A stretch of 64,000 nt of DNA from Eledone cirrhosa (lineage: Eukaryota), in the NCBI GenBank assembly GCA_964016885.1, contig CAXHJY010001168.1:1-64000 (forward strand), written 5' to 3'. The notes under the pieces are model-generated. The model was not told where the DNA came from. It did no database searches and saw only the letters and a program-made list of their open reading frames with translations. The translations under genes were made by a program, and so were the position numbers. Positions 1 through 47,450 of the stretch are shown piece after piece. Position 1 is the first letter of the stretch. Each line of letters begins with the position of its first letter.

Positions 1-1
1 G

Positions 2-199
2 AGATTACTGTCCAGAGCCAATTCTTACACGGGAGGACGCCGTCCGTGCAATTTATGCTCGGAGGAAACTTTACAAATGCTGTTTTCGACGGACCAACTC
101 CTAAACAAGAAAGATGAACTGGTTACTGCATGTAAACATAGATTGCGTAGGACTTACCTCGCCCTCAAACCCCATAATGACCCGGGGGGGGTAGACTAG
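2..199 (+). pseudogene. C-terminal end of a Penelope-like (Naiad-type) GIY-YIG ORF, cut by the window start
   Basis: Manual frame-2 translation RLLSRANSYTGGRRPCNLCSEETLQMLFSTDQLLNKKDELVTACKHR...* has the CxLC-E...LLNKxxEL...CxH pattern also found at the end of the 820-aa PLE ORF (33192-35633). Confidence 0.85.
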
Positions 200-1316
200 G
201 GCTATAACACCCCCACTTGCCGATTTTGCAATGGGTAACCCCTGCTTGCCAAGGGAGACGTAAGATCTTCTTTGTATTCTTTTATCGCTTCCTTTATTCC
301 TTCCTTCCCCCCTCTCTCCTTAGTCCTTCTACCCCAGCTCTTCTCCTTTGTCGGCGTCTTTTCTCGCCCACCCGAGGCTGCCCTTTGGCCCCTTGTAGCC
401 TTAGTACCCCCACCCCCTCCCCTAGTCTAGGATAGATTTGGCGGACTCCGCCCTTTATAGCAGTTGGTTTAGACCCCGGATACTTGTCCCCTTTTTCCGA
501 CCGCTCCCACTACTCTCTGTGCCCTCTATATTTCTTAGTGGCACTTATGCCTTATTTTTTCGTTTCAGTATTTCTTTCTTCGCTTTTCTTTTGGGCGGGG
601 TGGATTCTGAATTTATTCTTCCGTATTCTACTTTTACTTCGTACGAACTTTCATGTAGCTTGTTTTAGATCTTTTAGAGTTAGCATTAGTATATATTTTT
701 CTCGGGACTCAGAATTATTATCTCGTATTAGTTCACTTTGCTGCACTGGGTGGTTGCCGGAATTGTGCCCGGGATGGAAACCTTTATTGTTTATTTCGTG
801 GTAGTCTCTTTAGTATTTTTGCCCCTTTTGTTGACCCGTCACCGTATCATTTACGTACTTATACCTCTTAAAAGGGTCCTCGCCTATACCGTCCCACCTA
901 GTTCTTTTACTTATTTCGTTATTTCTTTATTTCTTTCTTTACTTCTTTCTTTCTTTATTTATTTTTTCTAGACTAACAATAGCTAGAGACCTAGGTCGTA
1001 GAATTTAATTTACTTTACTTTTTTCTTTACACTCATTTGTTTTTCTTTACACTTATTTGCTTTTCTTCACTCTCAGTATTATTTCTACCCCCCATTGTTC
1101 TACCTACCGTTCCGACTTCCCCCCCCCCCTCCCCCTCCCCTGTATCTTCTTTGACCTCATGCCCAGCTGTAGCTGGCACTACAAACGCTTGATTGGGGCT
1201 ACTCCACTCCCTCCCCTCTTTCTCCTAGCAGGTTTAGCCACCATCTCCCCTACTAATTTGCAACCACAGAATTACTACTGATTTTTGACAATCACTTTGA
1301 CCATATATGTAATTAC

Positions 1317-1406
1317 CCCTTGAGAAGATCGGCTTTTTAAATACCAGGATAAATTTTCATTTAGTCCAGAATTAGCCGTCGAAACGGCTTGAGCTCAGCT
1401 GTCGGG
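1317..1406 (+). ncRNA. Type I hammerhead ribozyme, U3:A8 variant core
   Basis: ccc-TTGAGAA (1320-1326); stem II gatcggct/agccgtc; GAAA (1381-1384); stem III cggct/agctg around tgagctc; GTC (1401-1403); ggg closes stem I. Confidence 0.75.
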
Positions 1407-1500
1407 ATCTTACTGGTTCCTATTACCCACTCTACTACCTCAAGTATTGAGTACTTTGGTGCGTTATGGTCCACCTGGTTCCTTACCACATTTCCTTCGT

Positions 1501-43110: not shown

Positions 43111-43195
43111 ACGTTATTCCGGGTTGAATCGGAGGTAACCACAGTAAGTAAGGTACTCAATACATAGCAGAGTATAATAGTTTTAATATAGATGA
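43111..43195 (-). mobile_element. Second copy, produced by tandem duplication
   Basis: Identical to 41187-41271. Confidence 0.88.
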
Positions 43196-45028
43196 TACAT
43201 ATATATATATATATATATACATATACATATATATATATATATATACATATATATATATATATACATATATATATATATATATACATATATATATATATAT
43301 ATATATATATATACATATATATATATACATATATATATATATATATATATACATATATATATATATATATATATATATATATACATATATATATATATAT
43401 ATACATATATATATATATATATATATATATGTATATATATATATATATACATATATATATATATATATATATATATATACATATATATATATATATATAC
43501 ATATATATATATATATATATATACATATATATATATATACATATATATATATACATATATATATATATATACATATATATATATATATACATACATACAT
43601 ATATATATATATATATATATATATATATATACATATATATATATATATACATATATATATATATATACATACATACATATATATATATATACATATATAT
43701 ATATATATACATATATATATATATATACATACATACATATATATATATATATATATATATATATATACATATATATATATATATACATATATATATATAT
43801 ATACATATATATACATATATATATATATATATATACATATATATATATATATACATATATATACATATATATATATATATATATATATATATATATATAT
43901 ATATACATATATATATATATACATATATATATATATATACATATATATATATATATACATATATATATATATATATATACATATATATACATATATATAT
44001 ACATATATATATATATACATATATATATATATATACATATATATACATATATATATATATATATATACATATATATATATATATACATATATATACATAT
44101 ATATATATATATACATATATATACATATATATATATATATATATATATATATATATACATATATATACATATATATATATATATATACATATATATACAT
44201 ATATATTTATATATATATATATATATATATATATATTTATATATATATATATATATATATATTTATATATATATATATATACACATATATATATATATAT
44301 ATATATATTTATATATATATATATATACACATATATATATATATACACATATATATATATATATATATATACACATATATATATATATATATATATATAT
44401 ACATATATATATATATATATATATATATATACATATATATATATATATATATATATATATATATACATATATATATATATATATATATATATATATATAT
44501 ATATATATATATATATACACATATATATATATATATATATATACATATATATATATATATATATATACATATATATATATATATATATATATATATATAT
44601 ATATATATATATATATACATATATATATATATATATATATATATATATATATACACATATATATATATATATATATATATATACATATATATATATATAT
44701 ATATATATATATATATATACACATATATATATATATATATATATATATATACACATATATATATATATATATATATATATATATATACACATATATATAT
44801 ATATATATATATATATATATACACATATATATATATATATATATATATATATACATATATATATATATATATATATATATATATACACATATATATATAT
44901 ATATATATATATATATATACACATATATATATATATATATATATATATATATACACATATATATATATATACATATATATATATATATACACATATATAT
45001 ATATATACATATATATATATATATATAT

Positions 45029-46140
45029 TATGGGTGCATAAAAGATGTAGTGGGATCACAGGTAAGCTAACTAAGAACATAGATTTTACATGTGGCCGGT
45101 GCTCTGGTGCAATAAGTAGCAGCAAGTGTCCACACAATACTAGTTCTTTCAATTGCGCAGAGGGTTCTATAGAAATAATGGACATCTTCCGTTACCTGGG
45201 TGACAAAATCAGCAGTGGGGGAGGGTGCTCGGAAAGTACAGTAGCTAGAGTCAGAACTGGATGGAAAAAGTTCAGAGAGCTTATACCACTATTAGCCGCT
45301 AAAGGGTTCTCCCTAAAAATGAAAGGCAGGTTGTATGATGCCTGCATACGAACAGCAATGCTGCATGGCTGTGAGACCTGGGCATTGTGTGCAGAGGATA
45401 TACGCAGACTAGAGAGCAACGAAGCTTGCATGCTCCGCTGGATGTGTAATAGTAATATACGCGAACAGCAAAGCATAAACGAACTAAGGAAAAAATTAGA
45501 AATAAGAGGGATCAGATGTTGTTTACTCGAGAGAAGGCTACGTTGGTATGGTCACGTGATTCGCATGAAAGACGACAGCTGTATAACAAAGTGCAGGGCA
45601 ATAAAGATAGACGGGAGCCACGGAGTAGGCAGACCTAGAAAAACCTGGTACGACTTGATAAATTCCGACCTCACACGCTTACACCTCTCCAAGACAATGT
45701 CACTGGACCGAGACCTTTGGCGGTACTCAGTAATAGAGAAGACCCGCCTTACCTAAATACGAAGTAAAACCTACTACAGTCAGTAGGCATCTCTAACAAA
45801 ATACACCCCGTCCCACTACCCCCACCCCATCCACACCGCCCCTTTCAATGTAAAGTTATGTTGGTGCCACAACATCCAGGCCGAAACAAATGAGATCGTG
45901 TAGGTGTCATGACAAAAAACACAGTCCACGCTGTAATGTGGCCGTGTAGGCAACACGGTAAAAACCTCCCAGCCCCACACTGTAAATGTGGTTGGTGTTA
46001 GGAAGGGCATCCAGCTGTAGAAAACCCGCCAGACAGTCCTATGCGAGCAAGACAATCACTCTTGCCTCAAGTGGGAAAACCCCCGTCCAAACCCATGCAA
46101 GCGTGGAACACGGACGTTAAACGTTGATGATGATGATGAT
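45029..46140 (+). mobile_element. 5'-truncated RTE-clade LINE (RT C-terminus, 3' UTR, (GAT)n tail)
   Basis: WVHKRCSG...[55 protein letters not shown]; stop at 45756; tail ggacgttaaacgttgatgatgatgatgat. Confidence 0.9.
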
Positions 46141-47450
46141 ATACACATATATATACACACATATATATATATACACATATATATATATACATATATATAC
46201 ACACATATATATATATATATATATACACATATATATATATACACACACATATACATATATATATACATATATATATACACATATATACATATATATATAT
46301 ATATATACACATATATATATATCTCTATATATATATGTGTGTGTATATATGTGTGTATATATATGTGTGTGTGTGTATATATGTGTGTGTGTATATATGT
46401 GTGTGTGTATATATGTGTGTGTATATATGTGTGTGTGTATATATGTGTGTATAGATGTGTGTGTATATATGTGTATATATATGTGTATATACGTGTGTAT
46501 ATATGTGTGTATATATGTGTGTATATATGTGTACATACGTGTATATATATGTGTATATATATGTGTATATATATGTGTATATATATGTGTGTATATATAT
46601 GTGTATATATATGTGTGTATATATGTGTGTGTGTATATGTATATGTATATATGTGTGTATATGTGTGTATATGTATATATGTGTGTATATGTGTGTATAT
46701 GTATATATGTGTGTATATGTATATATGTGTGTATATGCATATGTGTGTATATGCATATATGTGTGTATATGTATATATGTGTGTATATGTATATATGTGT
46801 GTATATATGTGTGTATATCTGTATATATATATGTGTATATGTATATATGTGTGTATATCTGTATATATATATGTGTATATATATATATATGTGTGTATAT
46901 ATATATATGTGTGTATATGTGTATGTATATATGTGTATATATATATGTATATGTGTATATATATATATATGTGTATATATATATATATGTGTATATATAT
47001 ATATATGTGTATATATATATATATGTGTATATATATATATGTGTATATATATATATGTATATATGTATGTATATATGTATATATGTGTATATATAGGTAT
47101 ATATGTGTGTGTATATATATATGTATATATGTGTGTATATATATGTATATATGTGTGTATATATATGTATATATGTGTGTATATATATGTATATATGTGT
47201 GTATATATATGTATATATGTGTGTATATATATGTATATATGTGTGTATGTATATGTGTGTATATGTATATATATGTGTATATATGTGTGTTTATATATAC
47301 GTGTGTATATATATGTGTGTGTGTGTGTATATGTGTGTGTGTATATATATGTGTGTGTGTGTGTGTATATATATGTGTGTGTATATATATATATGTGTGT
47401 ATATGTATATGTGTGTATGTGCTTGTATCTCTCTCTCTCTCTCTCTGCGT
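46141..47450. repeat. (CA/TA) then (TG/TA) mosaic microsatellite
   Basis: Direct reading. Confidence 0.95.

Follow-up and report, generated by a model that had tools for sequence, protein, structure and literature searches.

The first 47,450 bases of contig CAXHJY010001168.1 of the octopus Eledone cirrhosa (assembly GCA_964016885.1) form a nest of retroelements: CR1, RTE and R4/Dong long interspersed nuclear elements (LINEs), Penelope-like elements (PLEs) and a hammerhead-bearing non-coding retrozyme lie among long compound microsatellite tracts based on TA. The window analysed comprises bases 1-64000, the start of this unplaced 103,410-bp contig of the 3.0-Gb genome. It is a pile-up of retroelement families that are sited genome-wide in TA- or ACAT-type microsatellites, probably because each family's endonuclease nicks a pre-existing repeat and reverse transcription is primed there. 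This insertion bias, which spans several classes of element, is real but smaller than a first-pass annotation of the same DNA had claimed; its CR1 component is new, and the mechanism is one that we infer.

The bias is seen in the flanks of other copies in the genome. Between 24 and 29 other copies of each family, the best among its 40 best matches, were fetched; any whose flanks were identical, whose anchor was unmatched or which ran on in tandem were then dropped, and a remaining copy was scored positive if a TA-type tract of at least 20 bp followed its 3' end (background 6.0%). Two CR1 families, CR1a and CR1b, scored 28/29 and 23/27, and two of the Penelope-like elements, PLE1 and PLE4, scored 24/24 and 11/13; the retrozyme (23/25), the R4/Dong-type LINE (23/29), a short RTE-like element (22/28) and a longer RTE LINE (14/28) were likewise positive far more often than background (p < 1e-9 for each of the eight). 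The Helitron, and a short interspersed nuclear element (SINE) taken as control, each scored 3/29 (p = 0.25). A stricter score that accepts only pure TA retains 28 of 29 CR1a copies, 21 of 29 for CR1b, 12 of 29 for RTE and 6 of 29 for Dong; on that scale the retrozyme has TA at the 3' end in 25/25 copies and at the 5' end in 11/14, and the Helitron scores 5/29 against the 17.6% expected for any start in TA or AT. All 13 non-tandem ends of PLE4 lie at TA. The same picture emerges from a random 600 kb, which best-match bias does not affect: PLE1 is in TA in 15 of 15 cases, RTE in 7 of 17 and the SINE in 2 of 56, and the flanks of all four CR1a copies start with at least five AT units (two of the four by the strict score).

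The repeat chosen differs from family to family. Dong is sited in (ACAT)n-type repeats: its 3' flank begins with ACA in 29/29 copies (strict ACAT in 21/29), and its 5' flank reads ACAT in 13/14. The short RTE-like element has ATGT at its 3' flank in 17/29 copies and TA in 11/29, so that the two families show fixed but opposite polarity. CR1a occupies longer tracts than length-weighted chance would give (median 498 bp versus 83), with tracts of at least 500 bp at 14 of 29 copies, only 7 of 21 when chromosomal copies are considered, and 9% by chance (95% range 2-16%). In contrast to CR1, PLE and retrozyme copies occupy pure runs of short length (median 42-59 bp; p = 5e-5). Since tract preferences differ among families, the bias is family-specific. 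The first-pass annotation had GIY-YIG, apurinic endonuclease-like (APE), restriction-like endonuclease (RLE) and HUH nucleases all converging on one shared target. Unrelated retroelements do converge on TA tracts, namely the GIY-YIG class of the PLEs and the APE class (CR1 strongly, RTE partly), but the RLE class is found in (ACAT)n and the HUH class drops out, because with 3/29 the Helitron does not belong to the TA-targeting group; this leaves three enzyme classes on two related repeats.

Several observations show that the target was there before the element. TA is present on the 5' side of 13 of 14 truncated CR1a copies and of 16 of 20 near-full-length ones. The two flanks of a single copy share rare 11-mers well above permuted pairs (CR1a 87 versus 14, CR1b 53 versus 7, RTE 51 versus 4, Dong 17 versus 2; p = 0.0005), as do those of the retrozyme (p = 0.017). 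An empty site is available within the window itself. The compound, C-type tract at 39407-45028 holds a block duplication of 1.9-2.1 kb (exact repeats of 443 and 310 bp occur at that spacing), and one copy of the block carries a 55-bp CR1b 3' tip (40934-40988, minus strand) between 12 and 9 TA units, where the other has an unbroken run of 28 near 42980-43040. The tip could instead have been lost from one block copy, or the assembly could have placed two alleles one after the other; either way an empty TA site is still shown. TA counts are similar in filled and empty twins, with 21 versus 28 units here and about 28 versus 27 for a retrozyme inserted in a PLE4 untranslated region (UTR) at locus L186. 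Taken together, the 5' flanks, the shared flank variants and the empty twin indicate that the target pre-exists and that insertion itself adds little to it.

Under the proposed explanation, then, a family's own endonuclease would nick an existing repeat and reverse transcription would be primed at the nick, perhaps aided by short pairing between the 3' end of the RNA and the target, as the AGT-TATA junction found at the 3' end of 25 of 28 CR1a copies suggests. Hydra-clade PLE enzymes may also mobilise the retrozyme and short PLE end fragments; Dong and the short RTE-like element would read ACAT on opposite strands; and CR1 endonucleases may favour long TA tracts, perhaps through shape and not sequence. 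Tracts would lengthen mostly by slippage and unequal exchange, with TA runs borne by the elements supplying new targets in a weak positive feedback. The higher-order units within the tracts, and exact repeats longer than in shuffled sequence (155 versus 67-89 and 169 versus 31-43), point to slippage and unequal exchange. Elements do land in runs carried by other elements (the retrozyme in the PLE4 UTR run at L186, the short RTE-like element in PLE3 UTRs at L329 and L333), but the final 1.7 kb of PLE4 gave a single nested insertion among 24 copies, which means that in young copies the runs that elements carry have so far seen little use. Of the earlier description of the nest as self-expanding, what survives is that elements bear TA runs and tracts duplicate; the two filled/empty comparisons show no growth at insertion.

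A bolder form of the proposal is a tentative one, and we would not bet on it: that CR1-group LINEs, a group regarded as inserting without a sequence target, evolved (TA)n targeting twice here; that CR1a reads long TA through its endonuclease or a Myb/SANT-like domain of open reading frame 1 (ORF1) and carries the target in its 5' UTR; and that CR1, RTE, Hydra-type Penelope and the retrozyme feed one self-supplying TA niche that makes up about 6% of the 3-Gb genome. Some results weigh against endonuclease-led targeting or its extensions. Half of the RTE copies lie outside tracts, and CR1b is looser than CR1a, with a 5' tract in 7/13 copies and a plain 8-bp AT-rich duplication at one locus (L076). 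For PLE3, 24 copies were fetched and 11 scored, of which only 4 have TA at the 3' flank, the rest having CA or short TA. The Myb/SANT-like signal of CR1a falls short of the Pfam cut-off. Best-match samples lean toward young copies, and some of the copies sampled are not independent (tandem pairs, duplicated loci); in palindromic (TA)n, moreover, the sequence cannot tell whether the element nicked the site itself or used a break made by the host.

This last point leads to host-driven capture, in which long TA tracts break or extrude cruciforms, host nucleases cut them, and any active retroelement RNA whose end pairs with TA is copied in, the convergence being a property of the DNA. (Here and below, published work is compared as far as the available portions of the papers go.) TA repeats are reported in the literature to form cruciforms and break, and the long tracts around CR1a are what capture would give; CR1a's liking for them fits the shape reading and host breaks equally. 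Capture would also accommodate the placement of CR1a and CR1b in different subclades together with metagenome reverse transcriptases (a quick tree with 91 unnamed rows, support 93-95), and the finding that no related metagenome CR1 locus carries more than 20 bp of (TA)n (64 of 80 include the C-terminus), on single contigs that are short, that in many cases stop where the element does, and that TA would interrupt. We nevertheless consider it unlikely, given that an abundant SINE shows no enrichment (2/56 and 3/29), that strand polarity in ACAT is constant for Dong and likewise for the short RTE-like element, and that the short pure runs favoured by PLEs and the retrozyme differ from the tracts of CR1.

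Microsatellite seeding, in which the elements themselves make the tracts through later expansion of a TA tail, or of a short TA target duplicated on insertion, is known for LINEs (PMC7878876, PMC2887409). It would account for the long tracts beside CR1a, and the TA run within the CR1a 5' UTR (16207-16251, minus strand, in the window) has anywhere between 9 and 40 units in copies that are 98-99% alike (it could be read in 16 of 20, the other four being truncated below it). Seeding is very improbable, however: copies truncated at random have TA 5' of them, filled and empty twins are similar in TA count, and within tandem arrays of PLE4 or of the retrozyme no TA tract stands where the units join.

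That the pattern arises from contigs mis-joined through TA repeats would be consistent with the position of the window at the start of an unplaced 103-kb contig, with a 2-kb duplication that could be two alleles in tandem, and with public contigs, which bridge no tract (two public contig sets of one sample match the unique stretch 30938-31860 without differences). The bias is kept on chromosome-scale contigs alone (CR1a 20/21, CR1b 20/23), element ends are exact and both flanks of one copy share variants, so artefact can be set aside as a cause of the bias, with a minor yet appreciable chance that the order or tract lengths of this one contig are affected. Random insertion followed by purging of copies outside TA tracts hardly merits consideration either, as copies of the SINE and of the Helitron survive outside tracts, junctions are base-exact and the youngest copies show the bias.

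Within 1-47450, elements account for 26,538 bp, TA-like tract outside elements for 18,857 bp and neither for 2,055 bp. The earlier figure of more than 20 kb of TA-based tract holds for TA-like sequence as a whole (20,796 bp), the part beyond the 18,857 bp being internal to elements; about 1.9 kb of apparent tract (parts of 23729-26040, 35633-39406 and 16207-16251) is UTR sequence. TA-like 20-mers start at 39% of positions in 1-47450, compared with 0.8% in 47451-64000 and 4.5% in genome samples (60 evenly spaced 10-kb stretches, all on the large contigs C1-C28, unplaced contigs being left out). The first 400 kb of the genome contains 417 TA tracts (median 36 bp, longest 2,086); TA tracts being common genome-wide, the window represents the extreme of a general state. 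Its tracts are compound, with TA interrupted by TG or CA at intervals of 5-15 units and a longest pure run of 32 units. Besides 39407-45028, they lie at 1501-11878 (G-type interruptions, two small inserts), 16386-17139 (C-type, TACA, adjoining Dong), 20849-21918 (34/68-bp higher-order units) and 46139-47422 (TA/TG). Interruptions are strand-polarised across kilobases, TG in 1501-11878 and CA in 39407-45028. The nest continues past the window (G000:C1195:64001-94000, loci L284-L286) where TA/TACA tracts contain a long Dong, CR1a, CR1b and eight copies of the short RTE-like element. Between the two, the AT-rich DNA at 47904-63158 is unremarkable; it contains numerous SINE copies and, at 63028-63158, a 65-bp unit perfectly repeated in tandem.

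The elements named in the first-pass annotation were recovered by Pfam, tblastn and copy comparison: three CR1 pieces (of two families), R4/Dong, two RTEs, the hammerhead mini-element and a Helitron 3' end. Its picture of islands that are all transposable elements bounded by TA is that of a real nest, with exceptions in Dong, which is in (ACAT)n-type sequence, and in the Helitron, which has no tract to its left and 9 bp to its right.

CR1a (11879-16385, minus strand) is near full length, with a 5' UTR, ORF1, an APE-reverse transcriptase region (Pfam APE and RVT_1) and a short tandem tail, its frames broken by stops and indels; it extends to about 16385, the 5' UTR being shared with other copies. 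CR1b (19635-20848, plus strand) is 5'-truncated, carries RVT_1 and is about 40% identical to CR1a. An APE followed by a reverse transcriptase and a short tandem 3' tail agree with CR1 membership. In the quick tree, with its unnamed rows, joint support with a group containing L461 is 97; the 3' end of L461 may be that of avian CR1. One metagenome relative, L500, has its 3' end in (ACAT)n, as tail or target. Small unplaced contigs hold 8/29 CR1a and 6/29 CR1b copies versus 0/29 for the Helitron. The start of CR1a ORF1 (15860-16101, minus strand; L527:4401-4700, minus strand) shows a weak Myb/SANT-like match (PF13837, E = 1.5e-4, below the Pfam cut-off), poly-Q and two CCCH-like fingers. Types I-IV of CR1 ORF1 are defined by RRM, CCHC, PHD and esterase, an unclassified type V being allowed, and the available text of PMC4120745 describes no Myb or SANT ORF1; Pfam finds none of the four in CR1a ORF1. 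Its N-terminus returned no homologue and no PDB sequence match under E 0.3, and a single-sequence structural model (predicted template-modelling score 0.41) gave generic helical matches (best Z 5.7).

Four PLEs were found, as annotated. PLE1 (1-1500, plus strand), cut by the contig start, retains the C-terminus of the endonuclease and the UTR, as seen from tblastn to PLE4 and its CxxC and CxH motifs. PLE2 (22880-23692, plus strand) is a 3' part; among 24 copies, 12 scored TA at the 3' end, 11 continue into a tandem unit and one has TA a few bases on. PLE3 (23729-27035, minus strand) is 5'-truncated, with a short inversion and a CA/TA-rich UTR. PLE2 and PLE3 are degenerate. PLE4 (33132-39406, plus strand) has an 830-aa open frame (33141-35633), unrecognised in the Pfam scan of the window, and a 3.8-kb UTR whose TG/TA stretch at 36850-38572 is common to other copies, 96-97% alike over the whole unit; this UTR holds 1,027 bp of TA-like sequence (717 bp in PLE3). 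The frame runs from reverse transcriptase to GIY-YIG, with RWR at 54, DKT at 132, YRDD at 363, YIG at 724, the CxCX5C linker, CxxC and CxH at 690, 788 and 816, and no GxKF. The label Naiad-like given to these elements does not stand: Naiads have an N-terminal endonuclease and DKA and lack canonical hammerheads (PMC8557442), so the label conflicts with both the frame (C-terminal endonuclease, DKT) and the hammerhead motif near each 3' end, only the (TA)n preference being alike. A Neptune-like label was also dropped after motif comparison. Judged from their motifs, the elements probably belong to the Hydra clade, with which they share the C-terminal GIY-YIG, an RWK-like motif, DKT, CxCX5C, CxxC, CxH, absence of GxKF, hammerhead motifs and reported (TA)n insertion; PLE4 differs in its unit of about 6.5 kb and its 3.8-kb microsatellite-bearing UTR, versus "generally under 3 kb" (PMC8557442). 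Arrays of 6.5-kb PLE4 units with an inverted copy at one end occur at G000:C1:126835401-126863803 and C3:36958330-36969829, and many PLE4 matches are divergent pairs. Degenerate 110-140-bp repeats follow the PLE4 stop codon at 35580-36454, one of them (36232-36319) like a decayed hammerhead.

Smaller pieces of the same type include a short PLE 3' end at 4395-4525 (minus strand), whose relatives are TA-flanked in 6/8 cases in random samples, and identical 80-bp end fragments at 41191-41270 and 43115-43194 (both minus strand), copied with the block duplication. A repeat at 21919-22838 (plus strand; 21 matches among fetched loci), its 3' end fixed at TA and its copies including fold-back ones, is likely a Penelope-type 3' end; no canonical hammerhead was found in it. 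It is abundant.

A type I hammerhead descriptor returned seven cores in the window against a mean of 0.8 in 30 shuffles, five convincing and two weak (27721 and 36232), and two further motifs outside the descriptor limits were recognised by eye (23600 and 39194). The total is thus seven, where six had been annotated, each predicted from the core and three stems in type I order: 1317-1406 (plus strand, a U3-A8 core variant), 4475-4525, 9594-9676, 23600-23639 of PLE2 (with C at A9 in the window copy), about 23830-23884 of PLE3, 32605-32690 and 39194-39344 of PLE4. The core is kept in most genome copies of all seven (19/37, 17/31, 54/55, 32/34, 32/35, 17/28 and 40/40). Rfam gave nothing at gathering score, in the window or on eight hammerhead pieces, and hence no hammerhead match, and a whole-window scan by E-value was swamped by chance microRNA matches to TA. 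The motif at 32605-32690 belongs to an older repeat (32470-32690, plus strand), 75-88% identical to its copies, which is TA-flanked in 0/23 and in most copies continues past its end point in the window. That at 9594-9676 belongs to the retrozyme (9412-9927, plus strand), which comes from a tandem unit of 629 bp whose 3' end is fixed and for which there are 2,836 candidates in the genome; copies are 99% alike and form tandem arrays, one hammerhead per non-coding unit. Metazoan non-LTR retrozymes (PMC7229834; bioRxiv 10.64898/2026.07.22.740005) are likewise non-coding tandem units with one type I hammerhead and thousands of copies; the unit here is 629 bp versus about 300 bp, and has a fixed 3' end in TA. 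The terms microsatellite, target site and octopus are absent from the available text of PMC7229834.

The Dong element (17140-19465, plus strand) is a 5'-truncated RLE LINE with RVT_1, a CCHC finger (zf-RVT) and a PD-(D/E)xK-like motif, which we take to place it in the R4/Dong clade. It shares with that clade this combination of domains and a microsatellite target of fixed polarity, here (ACAT)n; the target of Bombyx Dong is (TAA)n. The window holds a fragment (30578-30746, minus strand) of the short RTE-like element, a 600-bp non-autonomous element that ends in a C2H2 finger remnant and is likely RTE-derived, RTE being the clade we assume for it. The RTE LINE (45029-46138, plus strand) is 5'-truncated with a (GAT)n tail, and is presumably RTE from this tail and its C-terminus. 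At L096 and L110, RTE copies have several 24-27-bp TA-containing minisatellite units on both sides. RTEs cut at TA, and the published Tn-TA signature (PMC13295347) is similar in its APE nick at a TA step and its repeat tail; here about half of the copies are in TA tracts. The Helitron (27036-30349, plus strand) is a 3' part with a PIF1 helicase (Pfam), a hairpin and CTAG followed by T, together with a second Helitron-derived 3' end.

Main target-specific groups are given as RLE elements, Tx1 and R1 (PMC4640811, PMC4494074). Kibi in (TC)n, Koshi in (TTC)n and Mino in (AC)n (PMC4494074, PMC3124438) are also APE-type LINEs with nearly all copies in one microsatellite, but belong to the Tx1 and R1 clades, whereas the families here are of the CR1 group and target (TA)n. 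In penaeid shrimp (PMC7878876), Penelope and RTE-BovB likewise occur with long (AT)n and elements carry simple sequence repeats; they are treated there as carriers, with no junction-level targeting and no CR1 in the available text. The octopus repeat annotation of PMC13282606, in its available text, lists active CR1, Dong-R4, RTE and Penelope families and gives no targets, and the corresponding portions of PMC9804982, PMC13708176, PMC12220107 and PMC3124438 hold nothing on CR1 targeting. No CR1 family targeting (TA)n was found in our literature search, outside of which lie Repbase, Kojima and Fujiwara 2004 and supplements; octopus families and their targets may be given in the supplements to PMC8557442 and PMC13282606.

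The TA-type siting at almost every copy checked likely reflects insertion into existing repeats, with some families carrying fresh repeats along. RLE, Tx1, R1 and Penelope-like elements are already known to target microsatellites, and a CR1-group family with more than 90% of its copies in (TA)n adds a clade. Whether shared targeting is set by the enzyme of the element or by fragile host DNA becomes testable in one genome, which has built-in controls in young families that differ: short pure runs for PLEs, long compound tracts for CR1a, ACAT for Dong, and none for the Helitron and SINE. Such targeting may explain why genomes of this kind are so rich in TA repeats and so hard to assemble there.

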